Part shown: in pieces, positions 33,355-60,071 of the stretch
How the letters are laid out: the number at the start of each line of letters is the position of its first letter
Numbering within the stretch: position 1 is the first letter of the stretch
DNA from: a virus
Lineage: Duplodnaviria > Heunggongvirae > Uroviricota > Caudoviricetes
Length of the DNA stretch: 64,000 nucleotides
Reading direction: 5' to 3' (one strand)
Virus record (IMG/VR): IMGVR_UViG_2645727901_000008
Position numbers and translations under genes: made by a program
The notes under the pieces: generated by a model
What the model was told of the DNA's origin: nothing
What the model saw: only the letters and a program-made list of their open reading frames with translations
The model's database searches: none

Positions 33355-33586
33355 TGCTTTGGCGTTATGACTCCCTACCGCGCTTCGGCTGAAAGTTAAT
33401 CGTCAAAAGAACCTTCAACGGGAGCCGTTAGCGCGATGGATTATGTGCAGTTTGTGATTTCCAAAATAGTGTCAACCACTTTTTGTGGATTTTATTTTTT
33501 GACCGAAATTTGGCCTAAATCATGTTGATGTAGTTAATTGTTTTTATAACATAAAACTTCATTTTGTTTACATGAAGGATGGTGTA

Positions 33587-38509: not shown

Positions 38510-38688
38510 AGCCTCCTTTGACTAAGTTAAGGAGCTACCGCGTGAGGTTCCAATCTCAATGGCGGTAGCACTGACTGGGTTGGAACTACCGGCGTCAAAG
38601 GGAACCGGCCTGCCTTTCGGCAGCCCAGCCAGCACTACCATTGATCTCTGAGCTAAACGCTACGTATGGCTGTGCGATGGCATGACAC
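38510..38688 (-). ncRNA. Candidate structured leader / antisense-RNA region (c4-like position)
   Basis: Non-coding stretch with several stems (gctaccgc...gcggtagc; ggaaccggcctgcctttcggcagcc) between a terminator and the icd/ant-like genes; speculative. Confidence 0.25.
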
Positions 38689-38710
38689 AAAAAAAGACGC
38701 TTTCGGCGTC
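38689..38710 (-). terminator. Rho-independent terminator on the minus strand (gacgccgaaagcgtc + U7)
   Basis: Hairpin followed by T7 on the minus strand, downstream of ref. Confidence 0.65.
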
Positions 38711-38815
38711 TGTGTCGCCTTTGACATTATCCGGGGTTCCAATCCCGGCACCCGTTTTTCTAAGGTGCCGTAGAAATATACCCCACGATAATGCCAGGGC
38801 GCAACAGTCAGTATT

Positions 38816-38983
38816 TTATGCTTTGGCGGATTTCTTCCGGGCTTGCTTGCAGGCGTAGGCCATTGCTTTAGCTTTCACTTCATCCAGCTTCCCGGTGATC
38901 GCTTCTTTTCCGAGAGTGACAAACCAGTCATAGCAACCGCCAGTGATGTTCTGGATTTGAAAGTTGAGGTAGCGAACGGTCAT
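38816..38983 (-). CDS. Possible small protein (55 aa)
   Basis: Minus-strand ORF MTVRYLNFQIQNITGGCYDWFVTLGKE...; preferred over the opposing track ORF 38843..39061. Confidence 0.3.
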   Translation of the reverse strand: MTVRYLNFQIQNITGGCYDWFVTLGKEAITGKLDEVKAKAMAYACKQARKKSAKA

Positions 38984-39314
38984 TTTGACACCCCCAGCGC
39001 GAGTAAAGAATGCAGATTATCGCGTGAGTGGCGGACAACGAGTGATGGGAAAAGACAGTAGCTGTTCATAGTGTAGTGACTCCTTGCTTTCGGAGCCGCC
39101 ATCGACTGTTCCACGGTCTGGTGGCGGCGCAATAAAGGCTGGAACACCGTGAGTCAACGGGGGCTTTTCAGCCACCTATATTGCACCGCCATAGGTATAG
39201 CGGCGGCAATAATACGAAAAACTAAACAGTTTGTCTCAAAAAGTTGACCGGTGTGCCAATCGGTAGTGAATGTACATCGGAGAAATTTACAATTCAACTT
39301 AAAATGTTAGAAAA

Positions 39315-39893
39315 CTAATTTATCAATTCAATCGCCATCTGATACAACGTCATTTCATCGGCATTGTGCCGCATGAAATCTGCTTTTCCGCCTATTTTTC
39401 CGTCAGCATGAACAGGGACCAGCCAGGGATATTGTTCTCGGACCTCGGCTGGCGCTGCGTACTGGTGGTGCCATTTACACAAAGGGAGGACATATTTATG
39501 CGCGTTCTCTGCCGTTCTCCCGAAGATATGGTGCAGGGATACTACTGGGCTATGTTGTCCGTGAATATGGCAGGCAATGCAGGGGAGAGTACCGATAGCG
39601 GTCTGTATCCGGCGTTCATCAGCTGTGAGTGATCTGCCCTTCAGGCCGCGTGACGTGCGTGTTTTTTTGGGCGGAGCGGATACAGCTTTATCTTTTCTCC
39701 GCTGTTCATATTGCTTTGCTTTTTCAATTTTCTTTTGCCGATATTCAGGCGATGCGGCTTTTTCTCTCGCTCGCTGCTGCTGGCGTTGAGCTTGTTGAAG
39801 GCGCTTTGCCCTTTGTTCCTCTCGCCAGGCCGGGTCAGCCAATTTTTGCATGGCTTTTTGTCTCTGTTTCTCCCAATAGCTCTGTTTCTGCAT
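39315..39893 (-). CDS. ref: Ref-like HNH endonuclease (recombination enhancement function)
   Basis: Basic disordered N-terminus plus SRGLKGRSLTADERRIQTAIGTLPCIACHIHG...SLHHIFGRTA...LPLCKWHHQYAAPAEVREQYPWLVPVHADG, matching P1 Ref as recalled. Confidence 0.9.
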   Translation of the reverse strand: MQKQSYWEKQRQKAMQKLADPAWREEQRAKRLQQAQRQQQRAREKAASPEYRQKKIEKAKQYEQRRKDKAVSAPPKKTRTSRGLKGRSLTADERRIQTAIGTLPCIACHIHGQHSPVVSLHHIFGRTAENAHKYVLPLCKWHHQYAAPAEVREQYPWLVPVHADGKIGGKADFMRHNADEMTLYQMAIELIN

Positions 39894-39937: not shown

Positions 39938-39975
39938 AAACTGTTAGATATTCAAAATTGATTTTCTAACACAAA
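39938..39975. promoter_or_regulatory. Operator-like motifs between divergent ref and early-operon promoters (ctgttagatattc; attgaTTTTCTAACAcaaaac)
   Basis: TTTTCTAACA family; about 45-80 bp upstream of the ref start. Confidence 0.5.
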
Positions 39976-40010
39976 ACATTAATATCATTCCTGATAACTG
40001 TTTGGAGGAC

Positions 40011-40166
40011 ATGATGCTTATAGCTTTAAGTGCGATCCACCAGCCATCTGTGAATGAAATTGGCCTGTTCTATGTGTTGTTTTTCGGGGCGTTGGCGCTA
40101 CTTGAGCTTGGTATTGAGCTTTTCGCAGTGCTTATGTTTTGCGTCACGATTTTGGGGAAATTTTGA
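40011..40166 (+). CDS. Small hydrophobic peptide (54 aa)
   Basis: GGAGGA RBS then ATG at 40011; stop overlaps the next ATG (TGATG); one or two TM helices. Confidence 0.4.
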   Translation: MMLIALSAIHQPSVNEIGLFYVLFFGALALLELGIELFAVLMFCVTILGKF

Positions 40167-40789
40167 TGGTGAAACGAGTTTTGAAAATTTACATCGCGGG
40201 GCCGATGACTGGTTATCCAGATTACAACCGTGCTGCGTTTAATGCGAAAGCGAGCGAGCTGATGGCTGAAGGGCATATCGTTCTGAATCCAGCTGTGTTA
40301 CCTGGTGGCCTTTGTCAGAGTGAATACATGGATATTTGCCTGGCAATGGTGCGTTCTGCTGATGCGATCTACTTGCTCAATCGATGGGAGGAATCGATTG
40401 GTGCTCGTGCAGAGCACGCGCTGGCTGAAAAGCTGGGGCTGACTGTAATTTATGAATCACCAACCAACATTGAATGCCAGGTTGCTCCGCATATTTACCG
40501 GGAACTGGTCAATGCGTTACGTGATGTTGCTATTGAATGTCACGGCACGGATCAGCTTCGCGCTCGCTTAAGCCAAACCCTTTCCAGTTACCTGTCTTTG
40601 GCTGAAGGATACAACCTCCGACAGCGAAGAATGGTCAAATTAATCACTCTTTTATCGCAATCCCTTGCAAATGCTGAACCAACCAATCCGCTACCTGGTG
40701 ACGCAATGAATTATCTGAAGTCATGCGGTGTTGTTTCTGAAGATGCAGTTCGTTTTGTGGAGTTTATGTCTCGGAGGATGTCGGCGTGA
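40166..40789 (+). CDS. DUF4406-like (nucleoside 2-deoxyribosyltransferase-like fold) protein
   Basis: N-terminus KIYIAGPMTGYPDYNRAAFNAKASELMAEGHIVLNPA typical of DUF4406; C-terminal module shared with the ORF at 48882. Confidence 0.55.
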   Translation: MVKRVLKIYIAGPMTGYPDYNRAAFNAKASELMAEGHIVLNPAVLPGGLCQSEYMDICLAMVRSADAIYLLNRWEESIGARAEHALAEKLGLTVIYESPTNIECQVAPHIYRELVNALRDVAIECHGTDQLRARLSQTLSSYLSLAEGYNLRQRRMVKLITLLSQSLANAEPTNPLPGDAMNYLKSCGVVSEDAVRFVEFMSRRMSA

Positions 40790-41103
40790 GCTGGCGGGGA
40801 TGGGGAAGGGCAGAAATCATGATACTCCGCCAGTGCGCCGGAACTATGACGGTAGAGAGTATTGGGAAGCTGATCGGTCGTACCGGTGATGCCGTCAGGA
40901 CTAAAGCGCGGGAGCTGGGGATCAGCATGATTCTGAAAGGAGACTTTCATCCGTCAGCCAAATACCGGCAGAGCGATATAGAACTGGCACGGCAGCTTCA
41001 TCAGTGTGGTGTTCCCCGCCGTGAGATCGCGGAAAAACTCGAAATGCCCCTGGGCATGATTAATCAGTACGTTTATTTCGAAAGGAGAGTACATGAAGTC
41101 TGA
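40786..41103 (+). CDS. Hypothetical early protein
   Basis: 105-aa ORF, 4-nt overlap with upstream gene. Confidence 0.5.
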   Translation: MSWRGWGRAEIMILRQCAGTMTVESIGKLIGRTGDAVRTKARELGISMILKGDFHPSAKYRQSDIELARQLHQCGVPRREIAEKLEMPLGMINQYVYFERRVHEV

Positions 41104-41518
41104 AGGTTTAACGCCAGAGCAACTGGCGGAGCGTAACGCTCAGTATGTGACGGAAATTTCCCGTCTTGAGAAAGAGCGCGCGGCGCTGGCGGCGGAGAAT
41201 GCAGGGCTAAAGGCGATATGTGATGACTGTCGCAGGTTCATCATGAATGGTGTGCAGATGGGTTATATCAAGGTGCCAACAGCGGAAACAGATCCAGACC
41301 TTGAGACAATACGTATTGCTATATCACCACAAAAGCCCATTCCAGCCACCGATGCTTTTCTGGCTGAAGTCCGGGCACAGGGATTGGAGATGTTTGCTCA
41401 GAAATGTAACTCAAAATCAGAACAGTCGATTGCATCTGATATACGCGATAACTGGAAACTACTCGGTGAACATGCCACTGACTTTGCCGCAGAGCTTCGC
41501 AAGGGAGGGAAACAGTGA
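41093..41518 (+). CDS. Hypothetical early protein
   Basis: 141-aa ORF; segment ERAALAAENAGLK resembles the Ead/Ea22-like paralogs downstream. Confidence 0.5.
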   Translation: MKSEGLTPEQLAERNAQYVTEISRLEKERAALAAENAGLKAICDDCRRFIMNGVQMGYIKVPTAETDPDLETIRIAISPQKPIPATDAFLAEVRAQGLEMFAQKCNSKSEQSIASDIRDNWKLLGEHATDFAAELRKGGKQ

Positions 41519-41763
41519 GTAATTCAGCACGACTACAGCTTGGTTTTTCACCGCTATCAAAAACCATCGTGTTGGCAAAAATGCGTGACTTAGGGGATGG
41601 AACAAAACGTCGTGTTGGCAATGATCGCGGTCGTGATGTAACCAACGAGGCCGCTCAACTCGTCTGGCATCTGGTCATGGCAGAAGGCGGTGAAATTAAT
41701 TGGGAGCTGGATGATGGTTCGCGCATGGTATTGAAGGCAGAAAAGCAGGAGCCACCACAGTGA
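41515..41763 (+). CDS. Hypothetical early protein
   Basis: 82-aa ORF, coupled. Confidence 0.45.
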   Translation: MSNSARLQLGFSPLSKTIVLAKMRDLGDGTKRRVGNDRGRDVTNEAAQLVWHLVMAEGGEINWELDDGSRMVLKAEKQEPPQ

Positions 41764-42053
41764 ATATCGACACCACGATAACGATCGATACGGCCCTCAA
41801 CACAGGTTTGGCCCTGCTCGGTTGGTTTTACATCATGTTCAGTGCGGGGAAGTGGGCGGCCTCTGTTTTTCTAAAGCAGTGGGGAAAGCGCCGCAAACAG
41901 GAGATACGCCAGAAAGCGTTAGAGGCGTTCTATGACGCCTTTGAACTTAGCCGCATTGAGCCTGGCACAACAGCCAGGGTAGCAACAAAAGATGACCTGA
42001 TGATCGTGATGTTCCGACAGGAGAAAGCAAATGGCAGCAAAGCGAATGACTAA
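41760..42053 (+). CDS. Hypothetical membrane protein
   Basis: 97-aa ORF with N-terminal hydrophobic helix. Confidence 0.45.
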   Translation: MNIDTTITIDTALNTGLALLGWFYIMFSAGKWAASVFLKQWGKRRKQEIRQKALEAFYDAFELSRIEPGTTARVATKDDLMIVMFRQEKANGSKAND

Positions 42054-42255
42054 TCGCGAACTTGTTGATGCCGCGATTGAACTTGCTGGCGATTTTTATT
42101 CCATGATGGGGTACACGCATCGCCCAGGCTTCAAATATTGGGAGTCTCCGCACCCGCAAGAGCAACGGGTATTTCAAATGGCCTGTCGCGCTTTTGAAGT
42201 TATTCGCGGTTCTGATGTGATGGACGCGATTGCTGATTTGGAGGATGAAGAGTGA
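42031..42255 (+). CDS. Hypothetical early protein
   Basis: 74-aa ORF. Confidence 0.45.
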   Translation: MAAKRMTNRELVDAAIELAGDFYSMMGYTHRPGFKYWESPHPQEQRVFQMACRAFEVIRGSDVMDAIADLEDEE

Positions 42256-42563
42256 ACACAATTAAAGAAATGCCGGTAGAACGTGATGAATATGGCTGCT
42301 GGACACATCCGGAGTATGAGAAGTTTTGCGCAGGTCGTGAATATATTTCCACTGAGGAATTTGACGCCTGGATGAAGGAAAATAATCTTCAGTGGACTAT
42401 TCGCAGTATGGATGAAGATGATTTTGATCTGGACGCAGCTGGTCCCGATATTGCCGCCTGGGAACCGGAGCGACCAGAAGGTGAAGGCTGGTTTGTTGGC
42501 TCTATTCATGACACTGAAGATGGTCCAGTTTGTATCTGGCTGCGGGAGAAGGTTGCCGCATGA
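42252..42563 (+). CDS. Hypothetical early protein
   Basis: 103-aa ORF, coupled to the phosphatase gene. Confidence 0.45.
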
Positions 42564-43252
42564 TCCAAGCTATGCATGAAGTGAATTTATATAGCCGTAT
42601 TGATGGTTCTGGCTACAGAAACATATGGGTAGTTGGTGATCTGCATGGTTGCTACACCAGACTGATGTCCGAACTCCATCGTGTGGATTTTGACCCGGCG
42701 CAGGATTTACTGATATCGGTTGGCGACCTTATCGATCGCGGTACTGAAAATGTCGAATGTCTGGAACTATTACAGATGCCCTGGTTCAGGGCAGTAATGG
42801 GGAACCATGAGCGGTTGATGCTTGATGCGTTAAGTCCTGATGGCAACGTGAATAACTGGCTAATGAATGGCGGACAATGGTTCTTCATGCTGGACACTGA
42901 TCAGGAAATATTAGCCAAGGCGCTGGTGGAGCTGGTAAAGCGTCTGCCATATATCATTGAGTTGAACACCGGACATGAAACTATCGTTATAGCCCATGCC
43001 GACTATCCAGGTGGAGAGTACCAGTTCGGTAAGGATGTATCGCTTTTTGATGTTGTCTGGTCGCGCAGTCGCGTCGGTGATTCGATAGATGGCATTGGTG
43101 GAGAAATCACAGGCGCAGATCGCTTTATCTTTGGGCACACACCGGTACGAAGACCAAAAGCATACTGGAATCAGCACTACATAGACACGGGCGCGGTTTT
43201 TTGTGGAAATCTGACGCTAATGCAGGTGAAGGGAGGGCAGCTTAAAGTCTGA
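42560..43252 (+). CDS. Ser/Thr protein phosphatase (lambda-PPase / PrpA-like metallophosphoesterase)
   Basis: GDLHG, GDLIDRG, GNHE motifs; ATG at 42560. Confidence 0.85.
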
Positions 43253-43276
43253 TCAAATCATTTACGCACTCAAAAT

Positions 43277-43310
43277 GCGTTAGAACATTGATTTTAGTTT
43301 TCTAACATAT
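43277..43310 (+). promoter_or_regulatory. Operator-like motifs (gcgttagaacattg; attttagTTTTCTAACAtat)
   Basis: TTTTCTAACA family, about 40 bp upstream of the ATG at 43350. Confidence 0.45.
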
Positions 43311-43349
43311 TATTTTACCACTCGGAACAAAACAGAGTCGGTATGCATT

Positions 43350-44345
43350 ATGAGTGCAATAATCACCCCATATGTCGTAAATGAAACTGGTGTGGCTGTC
43401 TTTCCGGTAGACAAGCCCACCAGCAACTACATCGGCGCAGGTCGCCGTTTCATTATCTCACCACTTCCGCGAGAACAGGCTGAAAACACTCCAGATGGCG
43501 TAGTGGATCTGAATTATTCGCTGGTTGCCAACCAGTCGCTGAAACCATTTTTTCAAAGCGAGCGCGTATTTAACGCGTTAGGCGGTGAAGATTCGCTTGT
43601 TCATTGGGTAAGTTCCAATATCCACGATTGCCAGGCGCACGATAAGCGCGATTGCAGCCACCAGCTAACCACTCATTTCTATAACGGCTCTGCCGTTCGC
43701 CTGTGCTGGAAGCATGATGCGGAATACATGATGAAGGGGTACAGCAAGCTGGACGACCAGTTATCCCTGAATCGCGCCAACTGGGTTATGAACTGGGCTG
43801 CGAGCGAGTTAAAACTACCGCCAGAACGCGATCTGAGCATGGTTGAACTCACTTTTTGGGCCATTCGCCGGAATCTGAAAGATGAGCTGCCAGATGAAGC
43901 CGGGCGCATTGCATTTTGTCAGCCAAAAACTGAAATCCCTACCGGTACGCTGAAAGAATCAGATATCACCTGGGAGCACAGTACCCGCGAGCTGGTGGAC
44001 ATAACCGCAGAGCAGATCGTCAACCTGTCTGTAGATGAGGATTCCGGCCTGCTTTATATGCGCCGACCAAAAGCGGTCCTCGGTAAAAGCCCAGCTTATC
44101 TCCGGTTTGTGGTTTCTCGTCCGTGCATCGGATGCGGTGGCAAAGTTAACCACCCGTTCATGTACCGCGCCCGCTCGTTAAACGAACACGACCGCTGGGC
44201 TGTTCCTCTTTGTGATGACTGCGCCAGAAGCGCAGAACACGATGTCCGGGCATGGGAAAAAGCACATGGCATACGCCTTTATGTAGCCGCTAACCAGCTT
44301 TTCGACTTCGCCATCGAGCGCGGAGTGATCACGTTCAATAACTGA
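43350..44345 (+). CDS. Hypothetical protein with C-terminal Cys-rich (zinc-binding-like) region
   Basis: 331 aa; CIGCGG...PLCDDCA pattern near the C-terminus. Confidence 0.5.
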   Translation: MSAIITPYVVNETGVAVFPVDKPTSNYIGAGRRFIISPLPREQAENTPDGVVDLNYSLVANQSLKPFFQSERVFNALGGEDSLVHWVSSNIHDCQAHDKRDCSHQLTTHFYNGSAVRLCWKHDAEYMMKGYSKLDDQLSLNRANWVMNWAASELKLPPERDLSMVELTFWAIRRNLKDELPDEAGRIAFCQPKTEIPTGTLKESDITWEHSTRELVDITAEQIVNLSVDEDSGLLYMRRPKAVLGKSPAYLRFVVSRPCIGCGGKVNHPFMYRARSLNEHDRWAVPLCDDCARSAEHDVRAWEKAHGIRLYVAANQLFDFAIERGVITFNN

Positions 44346-44358
44346 TGGGAACAACGCA

Positions 44359-44658
44359 ATGAGTCAAGGTAACGGTGGTGGAGCTGCAAAGTGCAGAATC
44401 TCCACTTGTTTGATTAATGGCAGAAAAATAGAACCGTGCGCGGCGCTGGCACAATCTCTGGAGCAGGATGCTGAATACACGACGCGAAAAGGCCTGCTGA
44501 AATACAAAGTCTATAACCATGAATTAATTCATTCACAGGACCTGATCATGCTGCGGTCTGGTGAATTTTCTAAATCGCCTATTCGAGTTTCATTTTGCCC
44601 ATTCTGTGGTGAAAGTCTGAAAACGTGGGAAGCGGAGGCAACCAGTGAGCAAAATTAA
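44359..44658 (+). CDS. Small zinc-ribbon-like protein (paralog of 46151..46414)
   Basis: Shared C-terminus SFCPFCGESLKTWEAEATSE. Confidence 0.5.
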   Translation: MSQGNGGGAAKCRISTCLINGRKIEPCAALAQSLEQDAEYTTRKGLLKYKVYNHELIHSQDLIMLRSGEFSKSPIRVSFCPFCGESLKTWEAEATSEQN

Positions 44659-45103
44659 CTATCAAGAACTGCGCGAGGCGGCGGAACAGGCAACGCAAGA
44701 TGAATGGGTAGCATATATTTTGCCGGGTCATAACGGCATTTATCCTGCGCGCACGTCTGAAGGTAGGCATTGCGGATACTTTATTGACTGGCCTGGCATT
44801 GATGGACAAAGGAATGCTGGTGCTAATGCCCGTTATATCGCGGCTATCCCACCAAAAGTTGCACTGTCACTCCTAGGCGAAATTAAGCGCCTGGAGGACA
44901 AAAATATTGATGCCATGTGCCAAATTGCAGAGCTGGAGAGCAATCGCGCGGCGCTGGCGGCGGAGCATGGTATTCAGATTGCAATAAATGAACTGCTTGC
45001 TCTGGCCCCGCGTCTGGATAAACGAGCGATGGATGCACTCTCTGTGGCTGTGGAGCACCTGTGTAAACTGATTAAGAAGGAGGCAGTCAGTGAGCAAAAT
45101 TAA
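44645..45103 (+). CDS. Ead/Ea22-like protein (paralog 1)
   Basis: N-terminus MSKINYQELREAAEQATQDEW characteristic of prophage Ead/Ea22-like family. Confidence 0.6.
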   Translation: MSKINYQELREAAEQATQDEWVAYILPGHNGIYPARTSEGRHCGYFIDWPGIDGQRNAGANARYIAAIPPKVALSLLGEIKRLEDKNIDAMCQIAELESNRAALAAEHGIQIAINELLALAPRLDKRAMDALSVAVEHLCKLIKKEAVSEQN

Positions 45104-45770
45104 TTACCAGGCACTGCGTGAGGCGGCAGAAAAAGCACTACATGGTGAATGGGGTTACGAGGCAGGGGCAATCTGGAATACCTGTGATAGCGGCTATGTT
45201 CAGCACATGGCAGCGGTCGAGACTGGCGATGATGTTAGCGATGAAGAGCATATGAGCAATATGCGTTTTATCACGCTCGCCACGCCAACTGTTGTTCTTG
45301 GATTGCTTGATGAGCTTTCTGAAGCTAAAGCTGCCGAAGAGAATGAGTCCAGTTGTGCTAACAGCGTTATCGACATCGCTATCAACTGGCAGATGCGAGC
45401 CAAAGATGCAGAAGCCAAGCTGGAAGCCGCAGAGAAGCGCATTGCGGAACTGGAAACAAAAGCGAACCAGCAAACCAGAATAAGCGATAAGAATCTGACC
45501 AGGCTGATTGCCGATGCTGACAAAATGCTGGGTATGCGTTCGCCGGTTATAGACAGCGAGTGGTGGACGCTTTTACGGCAGTTCCTGATTGAACTTCAGG
45601 ATCGCCGCAGAAACAGCATTTCTGAATCTGGAATCCGTGCTGAAACCCTGAATGATTTAATCCGACATATTGACAGAAACCTGGATATTGACGCGATGAA
45701 ATCGCCGTTTGAACTGTCATCTGAAATTGTGGATTACGTTAATAGGCAACTGCACAAGGAGAATTCGTAA
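45090..45770 (+). CDS. Ead/Ea22-like protein (paralog 2)
   Basis: N-terminus MSKINYQALREAAEKALHGEW; C-terminal segment duplicated at 45990-46153. Confidence 0.6.
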   Translation: MSKINYQALREAAEKALHGEWGYEAGAIWNTCDSGYVQHMAAVETGDDVSDEEHMSNMRFITLATPTVVLGLLDELSEAKAAEENESSCANSVIDIAINWQMRAKDAEAKLEAAEKRIAELETKANQQTRISDKNLTRLIADADKMLGMRSPVIDSEWWTLLRQFLIELQDRRRNSISESGIRAETLNDLIRHIDRNLDIDAMKSPFELSSEIVDYVNRQLHKENS

Positions 45771-46150
45771 TGCAGGTGGCATTTGTTGGCCTGTTACCGC
45801 ATCCGATCCGCCTTTGGGCGGATATGTCACTCATAAAAACGCATTTTTTTACTACTGATGGCGGCATTCCGGCACCAAAGCGCCGTCATACCGGTATTGC
45901 AGCGGCACGACGAGCAGCAAAGAGACGCAGGAGAGCAAAGCGATGAAAAACCGTAAAGCAAATAAAGTGGCAAAACAGGAGGCGGCGCAGTGAACCAGCA
46001 AACCAGAATAAGCGATAAGAGCCTGACCAGACTGATTGCCGATGCGGACAAGGTGCTGGAGCGGAACACACCCGTTGCCGATGAGGAATGGTGGCAGGAT
46101 TTCCGGGCTGCAATGCTGGAACTTCAGGAACGTCGTCGGGAGGAGTTGAA

Positions 46151-46414
46151 GTGAGTGAATTAAAGTGTCGAATTAATGGCAATCAGATAGAACCGTGTGC
46201 GGTACTGGCAAAAGCACTCGAATATGGAAATCCAGCCTTTAAGAGTAAAGGCATATTTATCCCGGAACGCGTGAATATAAATACCGGCGAGCCAGGCTTA
46301 GACATTGCTCAAATTCACTCCGGCCAATATGTCGGTCGTGGTGTTGCCATGTGTTTTTGCCCGTTCTGTGGTGAAAGTCTGAAAACATGGAAAAAGGAGG
46401 CAACCAGTGAGTGA
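46151..46414 (+). CDS. Small zinc-ribbon-like protein (paralog of 44359..44658)
   Basis: GTG start at 46151 (MSELKCRINGNQIEPCAVLA...); ends CFCPFCGESLKTWKKEATSE. Confidence 0.5.
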   Translation: MSELKCRINGNQIEPCAVLAKALEYGNPAFKSKGIFIPERVNINTGEPGLDIAQIHSGQYVGRGVAMCFCPFCGESLKTWKKEATSE

Positions 46415-46961
46415 AGTTAACTATCAGGCACTGCGTGAGGTGGCAGAGGCCGCGAAGGGGGATACGACGTGGCAGAACCTACAGGCTTTTCATGCTGCGG
46501 CAACGCTGGAGGTTGTGCAGGCGTTGCTGGATGAAAACGAAAGACTGTGTCGCGATCTGATAGCTCGTAATGGTGAGATTGAAGGGCTTCGGGAGTGGGC
46601 AGAAGAACTGGAGGCACGGGAAGTGGCTTTGCCAGTAGCGTCATGCATTGTTGAAGATGGATGCATGTGTGTTGATGGGTTCAGTGAGTATGTAGGTCAC
46701 TCGCTACCTGATGGAATGCATGAGCTTTATGCTGCCCCACCAGCGTCGGTAGTGCCGGAAGGACTAGTTAAAGCAGTGCGTTTCTATGAACAGGTAAAGT
46801 GTGAGAATCCGCCAGTCGAAACCGGAGCATGGAAAGACGCTATTGACTGGGTGCTCAAAGAGGCTTGCCAGGCTGTAAACATTGGCATCAAAGGAGAGAG
46901 ATATGGCAACTTTAACAAAAAAAGAACAAGCATGGTTGAACGAATTACAGGACGTTCTTGA
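46407..46961 (+). CDS. Ead/Ea22-like protein (paralog 3)
   Basis: N-terminus MSEVNYQALREVAEAAKGD. Confidence 0.55.
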   Translation: MSEVNYQALREVAEAAKGDTTWQNLQAFHAAATLEVVQALLDENERLCRDLIARNGEIEGLREWAEELEAREVALPVASCIVEDGCMCVDGFSEYVGHSLPDGMHELYAAPPASVVPEGLVKAVRFYEQVKCENPPVETGAWKDAIDWVLKEACQAVNIGIKGERYGNFNKKRTSMVERITGRS

Positions 46962-47166
46962 TCGCTGTCCGTCACCGAAAAAAATAGGCTTTTACACCAT
47001 TGGCGATAAAAACATTTACCTGTATGACCTACGCCGCATGGATGTAATCATGGAGGCTCTTGATAATCGTTCGTCGATGGATTGGTGTGCTGCTGTCCAT
47101 GATATGAATGCCGGATTTGATGAAACGATTTTGTTCCCCTCATCAGTTGAAAGCACTGCGGGTTAA
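46903..47166 (+). CDS. Hypothetical protein
   Basis: Likely start MATLTKKEQAW within track ORF 46882..47166. Confidence 0.4.
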   Translation: MATLTKKEQAWLNELQDVLDRCPSPKKIGFYTIGDKNIYLYDLRRMDVIMEALDNRSSMDWCAAVHDMNAGFDETILFPSSVESTAG

Positions 47167-47176
47167 GGAGTAACAC

Positions 47177-47560
47177 ATGACCACTATTACCAAAGAACGT
47201 ATTGAATTGTTCATTAAAAATCCGCTTGAAAACGGACTTACCCGTGGCGAACAAATGGAACTGGCACGAATTGCACTGGCCTCGCTTGAGGCAGAGCCAG
47301 TTGGTGCATTCCACATTGCTGAACAGCAAGTTGACGGCACAAGTGACTACATCAAGGATGGGGAGTGGCCTATTGATAATGGGACAATTGAAGTCTACGC
47401 CGCCCCGCCAGTACCGGTAGTACCTGCTGCATTACCTGAGAACGACGATGAGGACGGGCAGGACATTGATTATCTTGAGCCATCTGAAGTTTACGCGCTT
47501 GGGCGAACAGCTGGCTGGAACGCCTGCCGTGCTGCCATGCTTAAGGGAGATAAATCATGA
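47177..47560 (+). CDS. Hypothetical protein
   Basis: 127-aa ORF. Confidence 0.5.
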   Translation: MTTITKERIELFIKNPLENGLTRGEQMELARIALASLEAEPVGAFHIAEQQVDGTSDYIKDGEWPIDNGTIEVYAAPPVPVVPAALPENDDEDGQDIDYLEPSEVYALGRTAGWNACRAAMLKGDKS

Positions 47561-47928
47561 TTAATCGTACCAAGCTGGAGCACATCCTCGAATATGCCAG
47601 ACAGCAGAAGCGCTTTGGTCAGCATTGCAAAATTCCGCCAGGAGATATGGTTGAAATCGTGGAGATTGCCATGCGTAAGGCTGGCAACTATCCGGTAACT
47701 CCGGATAGTTGGATAAGCTGTAGTGATCGAATGCCTGAAAAGGGCCAGAACGTGCTTATTTCGGTGAATTTCGATAGCTCTCTGGTTGAACCGCTAATAT
47801 GCTCCGCACGCTATACCGGAAGCACCTTTCGGCGCGGAGATGCAACGATTAAGCCGGGTAATGGTATTGAGCAAGCAACTCACTGGATTCCGCTACCGGA
47901 ACCGCCGCAGGAGGTTAACCGTGGCTAA
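47557..47928 (+). CDS. DUF551-like protein
   Basis: C-terminal HWIPLPEPP motif typical of prophage DUF551 proteins. Confidence 0.5.
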   Translation: MINRTKLEHILEYARQQKRFGQHCKIPPGDMVEIVEIAMRKAGNYPVTPDSWISCSDRMPEKGQNVLISVNFDSSLVEPLICSARYTGSTFRRGDATIKPGNGIEQATHWIPLPEPPQEVNRG

Positions 47929-48202
47929 CCTGCAACTTGCCGTCAAAGGTGAATACTTCGATGCCATGATTCGCGGGGAGAAAACAGAAGAATATCGCCT
48001 GTGTAATGACTACTGGAATAAGCGAATTATGTTCCGGGAATATGACCGCCTGATTATCACAAAGGGATATCCGAAGCGCGACGATTCCAGTCGCAGAATA
48101 GACGTCCCGTATAACGGATATGAAATCAAGACAATCACACATCCGCACTTCGGTGATAAACCGGTAAAGGTGTTCGCGATAAAAGTGAAGATTAATAGCT
48201 AA
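47921..48202 (+). CDS. ASCH-domain-like protein
   Basis: MANLQLAVKGEYFDAMIRGEKTEEYR... pattern of ASCH domains; start assumed at GTG 47921. Confidence 0.5.
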   Translation: MANLQLAVKGEYFDAMIRGEKTEEYRLCNDYWNKRIMFREYDRLIITKGYPKRDDSSRRIDVPYNGYEIKTITHPHFGDKPVKVFAIKVKINS

Positions 48203-48225
48203 ATTTCAATTAACACGGAGTAATT

Positions 48226-48519
48226 ATGTGGCGCGGTAATAATCATGGCGGAAGCCAGATGATACTTACCGAATATACGTTCGACCCCAAAACCTATAAA
48301 TCACGTTCAGTATATTTGCTTCGGCACAATAGCCGCGTAAGGAATACCGTGCTGGAGCAAAATCTGACCGTTGAAATGGATAATTTTGGGAACTTCAAGC
48401 CAACAATTGCGCTTGATGATTTTCCGCGTGGTTTAAGCGAAAGAGAAGCAATGCTGAAATTAGCAGAATGGCTACAAAGATTAAGCATTGCTATTGAAGA
48501 TAACTGGTCTGAACCTTAA
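48226..48519 (+). CDS. Hypothetical protein
   Basis: 97-aa ORF. Confidence 0.45.
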   Translation: MWRGNNHGGSQMILTEYTFDPKTYKSRSVYLLRHNSRVRNTVLEQNLTVEMDNFGNFKPTIALDDFPRGLSEREAMLKLAEWLQRLSIAIEDNWSEP

Positions 48520-48525
48520 ATTTAT

Positions 48526-48900
48526 ATGATGACACTAAAACATTTTCTTGACCGCCCATTATGGGCGGCAGCCGCAGGCTATGATTTTAATTATATGGAT
48601 TGCATGTCTTATACTGCCAATGCATACGACCATTCGTTCAGCCTGCTGTTTAATTCTTTAAGAATATTGCCGGAAACAGAAGTTGGAGAGCTTCATTTAT
48701 GGCTATTGGGTTTTATCGCGGCTGTCGTTGGTATTGCTGTATGGCCTTTTATTTTCTGGCTGGTGGCTGTTGTAGTGTGGTTTAAGTGCAAGACATACCG
48801 GAAAAAGTATTTCTTAGGTGATGGAATGACTGATATTGCCAAAATGAACATTGAAAAATGGACTAAGGAATGTGAAAAGAAATGGCGCAAAAAGAAATGA
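48526..48900 (+). CDS. Hypothetical membrane protein
   Basis: Two predicted TM helices (LWLLGFIAAVVGIAVWPFIFWLVAVVVWF). Confidence 0.5.
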   Translation: MMTLKHFLDRPLWAAAAGYDFNYMDCMSYTANAYDHSFSLLFNSLRILPETEVGELHLWLLGFIAAVVGIAVWPFIFWLVAVVVWFKCKTYRKKYFLGDGMTDIAKMNIEKWTKECEKKWRKKK

Positions 48901-49505
48901 CCAGAATCACTGAAGAGCGTATATCAGAGATTATTTCCCGTATCGAAATGTATGGTCACGGAGCTGGATATACGGCAGATGAAGTATTGGAAATAGCCCA
49001 GCAGATGCTGGCCTTGAGACAAAAAGAGCAACATGAAAGTAATACGTGTAGATTGAATTTTGAGCAGTGGCTGGAACAGCAACGCGGGAAAATCGATGTG
49101 GACTGTGGTTGTGTGTCCACTGAAACATTCATGCACTGGCTGCGGGTAGCTTACGAGGCTGGCAACTATCCGGATATTCCGGATAGTTCGGCGCAAGCAC
49201 CAGGGAAGGGGGGGTTCCCCGGAGAGCGGATCCGAATTAAGCCGCATGTTTACCGTGAACTGGTTAACCGCCTCCACGATACAGCGATCAAGTGTGCTGG
49301 CACCCAGCAATTACGGGAAAGAATTAGCCGCGTTTTGGGCGAAGTTATTACACCAGATCGTCATAAACAAGCCGAGAAAAGCGGCCTGGAAAGGAGTCAT
49401 CTTGAGGCGGCATTAAACATTAAACCGGGGCATACGCTAGGTGTCATTGATGCCATGTTGGTTCATGAAATGGCTAAGGCGTTATTGCCACTGGAGGCTG
49501 ATTAA
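48882..49505 (+). CDS. Hypothetical mosaic protein
   Basis: Shares PHVYRELVNRLHDTAIKCAGTQQLRERIS with the 40166 ORF and AGNYPDIPDS with the DUF551-like ORF. Confidence 0.5.
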   Translation: MAQKEMTRITEERISEIISRIEMYGHGAGYTADEVLEIAQQMLALRQKEQHESNTCRLNFEQWLEQQRGKIDVDCGCVSTETFMHWLRVAYEAGNYPDIPDSSAQAPGKGGFPGERIRIKPHVYRELVNRLHDTAIKCAGTQQLRERISRVLGEVITPDRHKQAEKSGLERSHLEAALNIKPGHTLGVIDAMLVHEMAKALLPLEAD

Positions 49506-49542
49506 ATTCCGGATAAAGCTGATATCTGATCACCATGCTAAA

Positions 49543-49571
49543 ATCCCCTCAATTCACAGAGGGGATTTTTG
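49543..49571 (+). terminator. Rho-independent terminator (atcccctc...gaggggat + TTTTT)
   Basis: Hairpin plus T-tract immediately after the long plus-strand early operon. Confidence 0.7.
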
Positions 49572-50203: not shown

Positions 50204-50596
50204 ATGGGATTCCCATCACCAGCAGCCGATTTTGCTGAAAGCAGAATTTCGCTTGACGCACAATTCATCAAACGACCAACCGCAACATATTTCATGCGGG
50301 CCGCCTGCTCACATCTCCGTGAGGGGATTTTGCAAGGTGCAATGCTGGTGGTTGATTCATCTCTTCCACCACTGGATGGTTCTCTACTCATATGTGCCGT
50401 AGAGGGAGAATTTCGCGTAAAGCGATACCGCAAGCATCCTCGCCCACACCTTGAGGATCTGGAAAGCGGAAGACGTGAGTCACTGCCAGATGATGATGAC
50501 AGCAGCTATTCCGGGAGTCAGGCCATATTCGGGGTAATCACATACATCATTAACGATGCCAGGAGTGGGGAATTTGATGATTGCCCGGTGATTTAA
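50204..50596 (+). CDS. humD: UmuD'-like protein HumD
   Basis: MGFPSPAADFAESRISLD... UmuD'-type sequence; preceded by a LexA box. Confidence 0.85.
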   Translation: MGFPSPAADFAESRISLDAQFIKRPTATYFMRAACSHLREGILQGAMLVVDSSLPPLDGSLLICAVEGEFRVKRYRKHPRPHLEDLESGRRESLPDDDDSSYSGSQAIFGVITYIINDARSGEFDDCPVI

Positions 50597-50668
50597 GCTG
50601 CAAAGAGCTGGTGCTTTATGCTTGTGAAGTTTATACTTGTGTACACATAACGAGTACACGAGGTGTTT

Positions 50669-50890
50669 ATGCAATCCATTAACTTCCGTACCGCGCGTGG
50701 CAACCTTTCTGAAGTGCTCAACAATGTTGAAGCCGGGGAAGAGGTTGAAATCACCCGCAGAGGCCGTGAGCCAGCAGTAATTGTCAGCAAGGCTACTTTC
50801 GAAGCCTACAAAAAAGCGGCGCTGGATGCTGAATTTGCATCCCTGTTTGACACCCTGGACTCCACCAACAAGGAACTGGTTAACCGATAA
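50669..50890 (+). CDS. phd: Phd antitoxin
   Basis: [73 protein letters not shown] matches P1 Phd as recalled; ATG at 50669. Confidence 0.95.
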
Positions 50891-51270
50891 TGAGGCATAT
50901 ATCACCGGAAGAACTTATTGCGCTTCATGATGCGAATATAAGCCGCTACGGCGGCCTGCCGGGAATGTCAGATCCGGGTAGGGCAGAGGCCATTATCGGG
51001 AGAGTTCAGGCCAGAGTTGCCTACGACGAGATCACCGACCTTTTCGAAGTCTCCGCCACCTACCTGGTGGCTACGGCGAGAGGGCATATATTCAATGATG
51101 CCAATAAGCGTACCGCGCTAAACAGTGCGCTGCTATTTCTACGCCGTAACGGTATACAGGTATATGATTCTCCCGTGCTGGTGGAACTTGCGGTGGGGGC
51201 CGCAACTGGTGAAATCCCCGTATCTTCAGTAGCGGAAAAACTACGTGAATTATTTGGTTCCAATATTTGA
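50890..51270 (+). CDS. doc: Doc toxin (Fic-fold)
   Basis: [45 protein letters not shown]...[23 protein letters not shown] close to P1 Doc as recalled, divergent at the C-terminus. Confidence 0.95.
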
Positions 51271-52858: not shown

Positions 52859-53353
52859 TTATAACTTTTCGTACTGAAGCGGTGAACGCTTAATTTCAAA
52901 GTGGCCTTCCGATGTGCTACCAAAGCCACCAGCACCACGTTCCGTTTCGTTGAGTTCCTCAACCTCGACTAGTGAGACTTGTTCAACACGCTCAAAAATG
53001 CCTTGCATGACAGCCATTCCTGGCTTGAGACAAACGCCTTCCCCGCCGGGATCAGTAATCAGTTTTGCCATGATTTCACCGCGATAATCGGAGTCGATAA
53101 TTCCTACGCAGTTAGCCAGGCGAGTATGTTTTTTGCAGCCCAATCCGGATCGCGGATAGAGTTTCAGACACCAGCCGGGCGGGATCTCCATAGCCAGTCC
53201 GGTATACACCCACCAGCTTGAGGAAATTGCACCATTGCTATCGACGCATGTTTTTATTTCAACAGCCTCAAAATCCATCGCCGCCGATCCGGAGGTGGCA
53301 TAAGCTGGAAGTTTTGCTGCCGGATGTAGGCGTTTCACTTTTACGTAAATCAT
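52859..53353 (-). CDS. dut: dUTP diphosphatase (Dut)
   Basis: GIIDSDYRGE motif and overall similarity to trimeric dUTPases. Confidence 0.85.
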   Translation of the reverse strand: MIYVKVKRLHPAAKLPAYATSGSAAMDFEAVEIKTCVDSNGAISSSWWVYTGLAMEIPPGWCLKLYPRSGLGCKKHTRLANCVGIIDSDYRGEIMAKLITDPGGEGVCLKPGMAVMQGIFERVEQVSLVEVEELNETERGAGGFGSTSEGHFEIKRSPLQYEKL

Positions 53354-54223: not shown

Positions 54224-54240
54224 TGTGTTAGAAATTTAAT
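54224..54240. promoter_or_regulatory. Operator-like motif (gtgttagaaatttaat)
   Basis: TTTCTAACA family between cre stop and the start at 54167. Confidence 0.45.
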
Positions 54241-55269
54241 TTATGAATCCATCAGGCGGCTATTAGCCCCCACAGACACGCCGCCACGGCGCAGATACCG
54301 CATAAGTGTTTCCGGTTTCTTCCAGGTTCCTTCCTGCATGATCTCCACCATAGACACCTGCTTTTCAGCCATATCGATAGCGGCCCCGACACGAGCACTA
54401 TGCCCGGTCCACGTCCGGTATCTCCCTTTGTTTGGCGTGGCATCTCTTTTATTCAGCAACACCCAGGCGTCGCTGAATATTTTCTCCATTGCAGGTGCAG
54501 TAAGGGGAGTTGTCGTAATCCTGGCCTTATTGCTACGGTGTATCGGCGGGAACAGCACCGCGTCAGGATGTTCACGAAGCCCGGAAACATCCAGCCAGTC
54601 ATTCAGCACTGCGGTAGTGCGACGGGAAAGCACCTTATCAAGCCCGGCGGCGGTCGTTATTGTCTTCGTGTGTGAAATATGTAGCGTGACAGTGTCACCT
54701 GTTTGGTCCAGATCTCCTACACGAATACGCGAGATTTCAGACATTCGCATCAGCGTATTGTATGCAACGAAGAGGAAAGCCCGGTTACGCAGGTCCACCA
54801 GCCGTTCTGACCTGGACAACAGGACGTCGAGCAGTTTCAGATCGTCCCACCGCAGCGGTATAGCCTGGCCTGTTCGTTCGCCTTTTTCCGTTGCCGCTTC
54901 GCGCCGGATGCGCCGCATAGCCAGAGAAACACTTTTATCATCCGAAAGTGGCGGAAGGCCACAATGCGAAAGCAGCATGTTAAGCATGGCGTAGTGCTTA
55001 TCAATGGTGGTCGAAGCCAGATCAGCATCATGCAGCTGAAGAAAATACTCGCGGGCCATCTCTGGTGAGATCGGGAACCAAGCGAGCTGGCGAGCGTGGC
55101 ACCATCGCGCCCAGGAGTGAAACACTAACCGGAGATCGCGCAAAGTATTCGGCGCGTAAGCCCCCTGGTCATTCATGAACCGCATAAAGTTTTCTGCGGC
55201 CTCCTGGTACTCTTTGCCAATGTTGCGCAGAAAACCACCGGAGCTGCCAGAGATAATTAATTCACTCAT
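54241..55269 (-). CDS. cre: Cre-family tyrosine recombinase (divergent Cre homolog)
   Basis: Collinear with P1 Cre with many substitutions (WARWC, LAMRRIRRE, NRAFLFVAYNTLMRMSEISRIRVGDL, WTGHSARVGAAIDMA); active-site R/H/R/W/Y-containing blocks present. Confidence 0.9.
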   Translation of the reverse strand: MSELIISGSSGGFLRNIGKEYQEAAENFMRFMNDQGAYAPNTLRDLRLVFHSWARWCHARQLAWFPISPEMAREYFLQLHDADLASTTIDKHYAMLNMLLSHCGLPPLSDDKSVSLAMRRIRREAATEKGERTGQAIPLRWDDLKLLDVLLSRSERLVDLRNRAFLFVAYNTLMRMSEISRIRVGDLDQTGDTVTLHISHTKTITTAAGLDKVLSRRTTAVLNDWLDVSGLREHPDAVLFPPIHRSNKARITTTPLTAPAMEKIFSDAWVLLNKRDATPNKGRYRTWTGHSARVGAAIDMAEKQVSMVEIMQEGTWKKPETLMRYLRRGGVSVGANSRLMDS

Positions 55270-59589: not shown

Positions 59590-59978
59590 AAAGCAACACC
59601 ACGCTTTTTAACGGCGGCATTCCACAGCTTATTCGCCATGTCCACCAGCTCTCGTTGCTCTTTTCGCGCCTGTTCGACTGATTTCCTGCTACAGTTTTTA
59701 ACCAGTAAGCTACCGTATTCAGGCGTGCGCCCGCGCACCTTGAACTGATATCCGTTCAGACCATGTAGCCAATATTTTCGTGGATACACACGATCATCCA
59801 GCTCACAGATTGCCCTGCTTGAACGAACAAAATGACGAATGATGTTAGTTACACTTACTCGTGAAACATGGAGATGAGGGTATTTTTCTTTGGCGAGAGT
59901 GGTAATTTCAGTGACTGTCAGATAGCAGTCAGCCCTGATCATGATATCCGCAATTTCTGCGCTGCTGATTTGTTCCAT
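59586..59978 (-). CDS. Small protein upstream of pacA (Lpa-like position)
   Basis: 130-aa ORF overlapping pacA start; operator-like motif upstream; product from position only. Confidence 0.35.
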   Translation of the reverse strand: MEQISSAEIADIMIRADCYLTVTEITTLAKEKYPHLHVSRVSVTNIIRHFVRSSRAICELDDRVYPRKYWLHGLNGYQFKVRGRTPEYGSLLVKNCSRKSVEQARKEQRELVDMANKLWNAAVKKRGVAL

Positions 59979-60054: not shown

Positions 60055-60071
60055 TATATTAGAAAATTAAT
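60055..60071. promoter_or_regulatory. Operator-like motif, weaker copy (tattagaaaattaat)
   Basis: Partial TTTTCTAA family member between 59978 and 60087. Confidence 0.3.

Follow-up and report, generated by a model that had tools for sequence, protein, structure and literature searches.

Mosaicism of the lambdoid ea/nin genes and of the accessory regions of P1 and D6 is well known, and two models of its origin have long been set against each other, namely, targeted recombination at conserved boundaries and random illegitimate recombination filtered by selection. The first of these, the conserved-boundary-sequence model (Susskind & Botstein 1978; Clark et al. 2001), is summarised in PMC3233612, as is the illegitimate-recombination alternative. 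In the account of Smug et al. (2023, PMC10684548), mosaicism at the level of protein fragments is ongoing in phages, and a good deal of it is predicted to have escaped detection in accessory proteins whose function is unknown. Here we describe one such set of proteins from the IMG/VR virus record IMGVR_UViG_2645727901_000008, of which a stretch of 64,000 nucleotides (nt), hereafter the window, was analysed. About 24 open reading frames (ORFs) lie tightly packed on its plus strand from 40002/40011 to 49505, most overlapping or nearly abutting the preceding ORF at its stop codon and having a good Shine-Dalgarno sequence, and they diverge from ref (39315-39893, minus strand). We hold it to be probable that they constitute a hypervariable D6-like accessory operon, which was built from short modules that have been re-assorted between genes and between phages, often at conserved DNA islands.

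The closest described systems are the hypervariable orf88-orf105 block of D6 and the ppp-pmgQ...pmgT-pmgU-pmgV block of P1, which occupy the same position between ref/immI and hot-humD-phd-doc and follow the same strand logic; by position and sequence, the operon is identified as their counterpart. In P1, the homologues from ppp through pmgV are non-essential, both in CRISPR interference experiments and in earlier genetic work (PMC10695390), and we would expect the operon described here to be likewise accessory and non-essential. It shares with the D6 and P1 regions the small hydrophobic peptide, the DUF4406, DUF4752, phosphatase, and DUF968 proteins and a PmgU-like C-terminus, with DNA identity of 88-97% in blocks. 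D6 matches at 92-97% in three blocks, which amount to only 47% of the ~9.5-9.6 kb, and P1, P7, RCS47, and SJ46 match over 10-25% of the length; small pieces also match hundreds of lambdoid, Stx, and P22-like phages. The window differs from D6 and P1 in an extra cassette of a Cys-rich (zinc-ribbon) ORF and an Ead/Ea22-like ORF, in another N-terminus on the PmgU-like protein, and in another N-terminal module on the DUF551 protein. Synteny and DNA identity with D6 extend over the flanking genes, namely, ref, immI (c4/icd/ant, with a C4 antisense RNA), hot, humD, and phd-doc, and over the Cre-like recombinase and the lpa-like and pacA-like genes farther from the operon. Because of the D6 identity blocks and this gene set, we classify the window as a D6-like, P1-type phage-plasmid. 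Among 72,556 plasmids, 1216 match the region; none covers at least 80% of it, and we therefore regard it as hypervariable. The best plasmid match reaches 77% coverage at 99% identity, in six pieces.

We propose that the proteins of this operon would have been assembled from a limited set of short modules, each autonomously folding or linking: the Ead/Ea22 N-terminus with its coiled coil, an MTxITxERI helix, a segment ending in LYAAPPxPVVP (module C), a GN(S/Y)PxxPD(G/S) linker, DUF551, a DUF4406 core, and a two-helix PHxYRELVN...QLR segment (module A). Recombination would re-assort these modules, both from gene to gene and from phage to phage; a large part of the exchanges might proceed by homologous recombination at short, near-identical islands with unrelated flanks (a linker-coding island, an island comprising a gene boundary and the Ead N-terminus, and a coiled-coil island), and others might occur at gene boundaries or elsewhere. 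The operon as a whole would start at a sigma-70 promoter, probably under the control of a repressor, and end at a terminator at 49540. The observations on which the proposal draws are the homology of the modules, their combinatorial architectures, the presence or absence of cassettes, and the clustering of breakpoints. A preliminary description of the region had suggested domain shuffling among its accessory genes, and module partners, combinatorial joins, and cassette presence or absence bear this out; the ORFs that it named are all present on the plus strand where it had placed them, and the three shared segments that it had noticed all prove to be real, with additional pairs besides.

Module A occupies residues 105-144 of the DUF4406 protein (40166-40789; copy 1, PHIYRELVNALRDVAIECHGTDQLRARLSQTL, at 40478-40597) and residues 118-157 of the protein encoded by the last gene (48882-49505; copy 2, PHVYRELVNRLHDTAIKCAGTQQLRERISRVL, at 49233-49352). 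The two copies are 52.5% identical over 40 residues (BLASTP E value of 1e-11), and their Smith-Waterman score of 119 compares with 30.4±4.9 for 2000 shuffles (Gumbel p of 6e-11, or 2e-8 once corrected for 325 pairs), which confirms that these two proteins share a PH(I/V)YRELVN segment, as had been claimed. Their DNA identity is ~43% over 165 nt, and the relationship is therefore old. When a profile made from the two sequences was run against 1.84 billion representative proteins, it detected at least 931 protein clusters at E values of 1e-3 or below, 152 of them at 1e-10 or below. The host proteins are 50-463 residues long, with the copy at the C-terminal end in 62% and internal in some, and six proteins of 50-67 residues are stand-alone versions. 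Most of 146 representatives lack a Pfam domain; the others combine module A with DUF551 (seven), Ead_Ea22 and DUF3850 (three each), ASCH and DUF5490 (two each), or a dATP/dGTP pyrophosphohydrolase, an Rv2179c-like exoribonuclease, and DUF1382 (one each), so that, together with DUF4406, there are at least nine different Pfam partners. In the consensus of the 146 proteins, an EaA-like architecture (helix, module C, and GWNACRAAML) mostly runs on into module A. In phage records, the module is found in the pmgU frame of P1 and in Eaa2/EaA of P22-like phages, and it is free-standing in a 46-residue “Eaa” ORF between the primase and helicase of T7-like Klebsiella phages and in a 54-residue ORF of an Acinetobacter phage.

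The window resembles the ea-nin regions of lambdoid and P22-like phages, in that it has three Ead_Ea22 proteins and one DUF551 protein and a module A that matches P22-like Eaa2/EaA and the Klebsiella “Eaa” ORFs; it differs from them in that the genes reside on a plasmid prophage and, from the EaA-like proteins, in that it distributes module A, the MTxITxERI helix, and module C among separate ORFs. Scans with NCBIfam models and relaxed Pfam thresholds gave no match to module A, and its profile found only chance matches among PDB sequences (E values of 0.36 or above). Its near-invariant positions are P, H, R, E, L, V, N, L, D, A, Q, L, R, and L. In the AlphaFold model of the DUF4406 protein, it forms two helices (residues 101-125 and 131-148), and the same two helices recur in the model of the last protein, which is otherwise poor (mean predicted local distance difference test [pLDDT] of 45.7). 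We accordingly define an unnamed, widespread, ~40-residue two-helix module, and this definition is a new detail. Since a two-helix protein of 50 residues is unlikely to be stable as a monomer, we infer that it may be a helical hairpin for self-association or partner docking that can be attached to different enzymatic heads.

That module A is an autonomous cassette is seen most clearly in orthologues of the last gene. Five sister plasmids keep its N-helix, KIDVDCGC segment, linker, and tail and lack exactly the ~55 residues of module A between linker and tail, which are present in the window, one other plasmid, and D6. Orthologues of this gene also differ in a second optional cassette, of ~100 residues (…ALAACKDDKKMKLIDLLVKELPKCGGWPDG…), which comes after the N-helix and ahead of the KIDVDCGC segment; insertions thus enter the protein at two or more independent points.

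For module C, the preliminary description had reported a YAAPP..VVP motif common to the ORFs at 46407-46961 and 47177-47560, and the pair fails the plain pairwise comparison that had been named as its refutation, the relevant high-scoring segment pair having a BLASTP E value of 14. The homology nevertheless stands on other evidence: the gapped Smith-Waterman score is 76 against 29.4±4.8, with 0 of 2000 shuffles as high (p of ~2e-6); both ORFs match phrog_660 (E values of 2e-27 and 6e-18); and a profile built from homologues of the second matches residues 70-125 of the first (E value of 3.4e-9), aligning the LYAAPPxxVVP motif. A comparison of the second ORF with P0190 gave an E value of 2e-5.

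Several further pairs lie in the middle of the operon. The ORFs starting at 44359 and 46088 are 44% identical over 82 residues (E value of 7e-21), and Ead/Ea22 N-termini are shared among three ORFs. The island at the gene boundary, which includes the end of the zinc-ribbon ORF, a Shine-Dalgarno sequence, and the Ead/Ea22 N-terminus MSKINYQxLREAAE, lies at 44593-44708 and is repeated at 45079-45153 and 46355-46470 (93 nt at 86% identity; repeats D1 and D2, 69-86%). The coiled-coil-coding island LEKERAALAAEN at 41154-41201 is repeated at 44922-44969 (repeat D5, 48 nt at 77% identity). Residues 126-178 of the ORF at 45090 are 62% identical to the ORF at 45990-46154 (E value of 1e-19), with a 71-nt DNA repeat at 90%; this 54-residue ORF, which corresponds to the C-terminal segment of the former, is likely a recombination remnant. 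The stretch from 44359 to 46961 thus holds a cassette of a Cys-rich and an Ead/Ea22 ORF twice, which looks like a segmental duplication, with the 54-residue fragment and a doubtful 58-residue ORF (45770-45946) between the copies.

These repeats raise the alternative that the sharing arose by recent tandem duplication in this genome rather than by exchange among phages. The two copies of the zinc-ribbon and Ead cassette (44359-45103 and 46088-46961), the high identity of the 93-nt and 71-nt segments between them, and the single such cassette of D6 are what such a duplication would leave. As an account of the operon it is unlikely, since modules A and C and the linker have unrelated flanks, the two copies of module A agree at only ~43% of their DNA, the same modules recur in hundreds of other architectures in other phages, and the sister plasmids differ through cassette replacement, not copy number. 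Duplication may explain the zinc-ribbon/Ead repeat only.

An AGNYP..PDS module had been noted in the DUF551 ORF and the last ORF; at the protein level the pair is weak (BLASTP E value of 0.025; Smith-Waterman p of 0.0015, not significant after correction). What is shared is a 33-nt DNA island: positions 47678-47710 (encoding AGNYPVTPDSW and containing AACTATCCGG-TAACT-CCGGATAGTT) and 49156-49188 (encoding AGNYPDIPDSS) agree at 30 of 33 bases (91%), with flanks at random-level identity, and the 25-nt core AACTATCCGG-N5-CCGGATAGTT occurs twice in the window against an expectation of 0. The segment is therefore better described as an inter-domain linker, usually ahead of DUF551, and a recombination joint than as a module or domain, and the sharing is real in that sense.

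A scan of IMG/VR for the palindromic core returned at least 120 loci, 70 of them in long ORFs, in which 8 types of related N-terminal modules are joined to 12 types of C-terminal modules in 17 combinations. A single DUF551 variant stands behind four unrelated N-terminal modules, and one N-terminal module continues either into module A or into an unrelated Cys-rich C-terminal module; between different combinations, DNA similarity ends 2-9 nt upstream and 25-34 nt downstream of the core. In one of these ORFs (N-type 13, C-type 14), the core is followed by “...KVYISSSWKNRDRVREVAMSLRKHGH”, by eye a putative start of a nucleoside deoxyribosyltransferase-like domain. A second scan, anchored solely on the start of DUF551, gave 46 distinct upstream contexts among 118 loci. 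The same joint is visible among close relatives: similarity begins at 47682-47685 in five of eight relatives, including the closest plasmid, which is 99% identical elsewhere and in which homology resumes at 47682; in the last gene, similarity to D6 begins at 49157 and to P1 at 49151. In P1, the island lies in the pmgU frame, five codons past a stop, and is out of frame with pmgT, which shows that it was DNA rather than peptide that was joined there; P1 pmgT/pmgU has the look of a junction made by out-of-frame recombination, not of two genes that overlap by design. The P1 segment concerned (NC_005856, 4922-5297) holds the linker island together with module A, and the N-terminus of the overlapping pmgT is ASCH-like by eye. 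At the level of sequence, the linker island of the DUF551 type recurs as a joint for recombination within genes, a detail that is new.

An alternative reading is that the linker island is conserved because its palindrome has a function of its own, either as a hairpin in RNA or DNA or as a site at which a protein binds or cuts, through which recombination would be programmed or translation regulated, instead of being a mere consequence of repeated recombination. The window copies do each form a perfect 10-11-bp stem of about -22 kcal/mol (z of -4.7 and -3.8), the differences between them are confined to the loop, and a TCCGG-N5-CCGGA core is near-universal in the linker; moreover, the same operon encodes a DUF968 protein whose homologues in D6 (orf98) and P1 (pdcB) are annotated as HNH endonucleases. 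The same palindrome with an AATTT loop (AACTATCCGGAATTTCCGGATAGTT) is seen in apparently non-coding contexts of unrelated viral contigs (IMG/VR loci such as L006, L027, L039, and L042). Against this, GNSPVTPDGW, the linker seen most often in the unbiased sample, is just 8/10 palindromic, and the variable codons of the two arms combine independently (TAT/AGT 3, TAT/GGT 17, TCT/AGT 9, and TCT/GGT 58; odds ratio of ~1.1), without compensatory covariation; two proline codons account for the CCGG repeats. A selected hairpin is thus unsupported, well as the element folds, and the perfect palindrome has the appearance of two polymorphisms that happen to coincide on the CCGG...CCGG core dictated by these codons. 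A protein-binding role for the palindrome is conceivable; on the whole, we consider its being functional to be quite improbable.

If modules are re-assorted at islands in the DNA, the ends of alignments between the window and its relatives might be expected to fall there. The comparison with eight relatives (D6 and seven D6-like plasmids) yielded 44 distinct alignment ends within the operon. Sixteen of these are no more than 10 nt from one of the repeat islands of the operon, which together make up 8.6% of the sequence (binomial P of 3e-7); eight further ends are at gene boundaries. Certain breakpoints recur: 47683 in the linker (five of the eight relatives), ~44650 and ~45134 at the two ends of the Ead N-terminus island (five and four), ~41208 in the coiled-coil island (four), and 49386, directly past module A (five). 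The last ORF alone has breakpoints at ~49000, 49157, and 49386. Conserved islands with unrelated flanks, combinatorial modules, and an enrichment of breakpoints at the islands were all found, as in the conserved-boundary-sequence model, and the clustering fits that model. The window departs from it in that its best joint is intragenic, at an inter-domain linker, and so yields new protein fusions instead of a changed gene order; many of the remaining breakpoints fit illegitimate recombination.

Several points weigh against so targeted a mechanism, and we infer recombination at the islands with these in mind. Some of the 16 breakpoints in the islands are short paralogous cross-matches, and when only blocks of at least 200 nt are counted, 8 of 26 sites fall in islands (P of 0.001), 7 at gene boundaries, and 11 elsewhere. 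From 11 to 20 breakpoints are thus neither in islands nor at gene boundaries, and island-targeted recombination would therefore not be the sole route. Because the IMG/VR samples were anchored on exact matches, they are weighted toward sequence shared recently, and the conservation of the islands could in part be due to peptide constraint and codon bias. For module A, the exchange between the two copies in the window is old, and at ~43% DNA identity its junctions are not readable; its modelled structure is of low-to-moderate confidence (pLDDT of 57-74 in the DUF4406 protein and below 56 in the other model). As for repressor control, the P1 C1 operator consensus ATTGCTCTAATAAATTT has no match in the window with up to three mismatches.

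A more speculative reading would make the exchange programmed: module A (PHxYRELVNxLRDxAxxYxGTQQLRExxS) would be a portable adaptor that takes varied heads (nucleoside deoxyribosyltransferase-like, deoxynucleoside triphosphate pyrophosphohydrolase, ASCH/DUF3850, exoribonuclease, and DUF551) to a common partner or oligomerises them, and the linker island would be a dedicated plug-in site, possibly the target of a nuclease of the phage, for instance the DUF968 protein. If true, adaptor and plug-in site would amount to a programmed exchange of domain cassettes for accessory or counter-defence proteins; we regard this as a long shot. Finally, that the shared segments are chance or compositional matches of unrelated small proteins can be given next to no weight, for, weak as two of the three pairs are in plain BLASTP (the AGNYP and YAAPP pairs), module A scores far above its shuffles, the linker DNA agrees at 30 of 33 bases around a core with no expected occurrence, and module C is backed by shuffle statistics, a shared phrog_660 match, and a profile match, so that the shuffle, core-count, and profile tests together refute it.

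Re-assortment of modules remains the reading that we prefer, and the DUF4406 protein near the start of the operon illustrates one of the heads that module A accompanies. Its core (residues 1-100, ahead of module A and a helical tail) matches Pfam PF14359 at 115.7 bits against a cut-off of 22 (residues 7-96, E value of 1.3e-33) and also phrog_355, and E83 is near-invariant in the family alignment. The AlphaFold2 model of the core has pLDDT values of 83-98, and its top Foldseek matches are nucleoside deoxyribosyltransferases (2a0k, 6qai, and 8pqp; E value of 1e-4, template modelling score of 0.5 normalised to the target), along with DNPH1 and the MilB/BcmB N-glycosidases; the nucleoside deoxyribosyltransferase-like fold first suggested from the sequence is thereby confirmed. 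The core aligns over ~100 residues with 2a0k, 6qai, 8pqp, 4fyi, and 4jem at a probability of 1.0; it differs from these enzymes in being shorter (~100 versus 130-160 residues), in its identity of 17-26%, and in its C-terminal helical extension. Other DUF4406 proteins are either stand-alone cores of 113-120 residues or carry many different C-terminal extensions, one of which consists of the YTAPPALVVP and AWNACRAAVL modules, as appear in the ORF at 47177. The D6 record describes its own DUF4406 protein as resembling only the N-terminal half of N15 gp57, and a literature search on DUF4406 turned up incidental mentions only.

The preliminary description had also coupled the DUF4406 protein to a 54-residue hydrophobic peptide. 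That length holds if translation starts at TTG 40002; from ATG 40011 the peptide (40011-40166; phrog_8890, E value of 2.5e-35) has 51 residues. Its stop overlaps the DUF4406 start (TGATG, 40164-40168), and it is identical in D6; D6-like plasmids farther removed keep, in the same position, a copy of ~70% identity that likewise overlaps by 1 nt. The coupling is thus real and conserved among D6-like relatives and specific to that lineage: a tblastn search of phages with the peptide found D6 only, and at a distant DUF4406 locus its place upstream is taken by an unrelated ORF, so that a general pairing of the two was rejected.

Downstream of these genes, an ORF at 41093-41518, which has no Pfam match, keeps its first ~13-40 and last ~10 residues among relatives while its middle is replaced, with breakpoints at 41131/41208 and 41486-41493; the coiled-coil island LEKERAALAAEN is common to it and the Ead protein at 44645. 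Next come a Ser/Thr phosphatase homologous to P1 Ppp (42530-43252; Metallophos, E value of 5e-16; 88.6% DNA identity to P1 ppp) and the DUF968 protein (43350-44345; Pfam E value of 5.7e-45). The paralogous Cys-rich small proteins at 44359-44658 (C-terminal FCPFCGESLKTW) and 46088-46414 both match phrog_4030. The three Ead/Ea22-like proteins score 68 bits (44645-45103; E value of 1.7e-18), 56 bits (45090-45770; E value of 7e-15), and 49 bits (46407-46961; E value of 9e-13) against PF13935, all above its gathering score of 27 bits, and the third carries module C at residues 70-125 (...LYAAPPASVVPE). The ATG at 46088 would make its ORF overlap the one at 45990 by 67 nt; the true start is probably the GTG at 46151, giving MSELKCRING..., because this overlaps the upstream stop as GTGA and is preceded by GGAGGAG, and repeat D10 agrees.

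Toward the end of the operon, an EaA-like N-terminal protein (47177-47560; phrog_60, phrog_660, and phrog_21749) combines the MTTITKERI helix, module C (YAAPPVPVVP), and GWNACRAAML, and the following protein (47557-47928) consists of an N-terminal module, the linker, and DUF551 (PF04448, residues 51-118, E value of 2.5e-20; 73.5 bits, above the gathering score). The last protein (48882-49505; phrog_21459, phrog_60, and phrog_924) is a four-part mosaic of an N-helix, the KIDVDCGC segment, the linker, and module A with a PmgU-like tail. It is followed by a terminator-like hairpin at 49540-49569 on the plus strand, with an 11-pair stem and then TTTT. In all, Pfam recognises DUF4406, DUF7446, DUF4752, Metallophos, DUF968, three Ead_Ea22 domains, and DUF551 in the operon; the remaining ORFs matched only PHROGs of unknown function, and no NCBIfam model was matched.

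Upstream of the operon, 40 nt before its first ORF, a candidate repressor operator, ATTGATTTTCTAACA (39957-39971, plus strand), lies over the -35 box of a predicted TTGATT-16-TAATAT promoter (together, 39957-39985), in a geometry like that of P1 OpmgT/P2pmgT. The corresponding 15-mer, ATT(G/A)NTTTT(C/A)TAACA, occurs five times in the window with up to two mismatches, against 0.22 expected: at 33537-33551 and 39957-39971 on the plus strand and at 39305-39319, 54226-54240, and 60057-60071 on the minus strand. Besides the accessory operon, they precede the c4-like RNA, an ORF beside the cre-like gene, and the lpa-like ORF; P1 C1 operators are found at the same kinds of place, and pmgR and pmgT carry them over sigma-70 promoters. 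We therefore offer this set, which is new in detail, as candidate D6-type C1 operators. With an operator-like motif lying over the -35 box, and with the homologous P1 genes carrying C1 operators, it is reasonable to expect that the operon would be controlled by a repressor and therefore expressed early.

Beyond the operator, the minus strand from 38558 to 39196 yielded three Rfam matches, at 38558-38645, 38690-38768, and 39117-39196: a C4 antisense RNA (77 bits), isrK (63 bits), and another C4-like element, which at 40 bits is below threshold. The three make up a P1-type immI region beside icd/ant; the Rfam scan gave no match within the operon, C4 and isrK being solely upstream of it. On the other side of the operon lie HumD (UmuD-like), Phd/Doc, a dUTPase-like ORF, a Cre-like recombinase, and lpa-like and PacA-like ORFs (50204-51270, 52859-53353, 54241-55269, and 58225-59978). 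These were named from their translations, HumD and Phd/Doc from the syntenic D6 annotation, and humD also by its 76% DNA identity to P1 humD; all of these neighbours are consistent with a P1/D6 backbone.

Taken together, the shuffling in this operon is clear but ordinary phage mosaicism, a known kind of phenomenon, and it leaves the general picture of phage evolution unchanged. Whereas the survey of Smug et al. (PMC10684548) was centred on annotated functional classes (tail fibres and endolysins, for instance), the modules of the window are without a Pfam family or functional annotation. For the debate over targeted versus illegitimate recombination, the operon offers a compact, quantifiable case, with about one-third of its breakpoints in ~9% of its sequence and with one island inside genes, at a domain linker, where new fusion proteins are created. 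It also brings to light a ~40-residue module, lacking a counterpart in Pfam, NCBIfam, or the PDB and found in at least 931 protein clusters, that could become a family.

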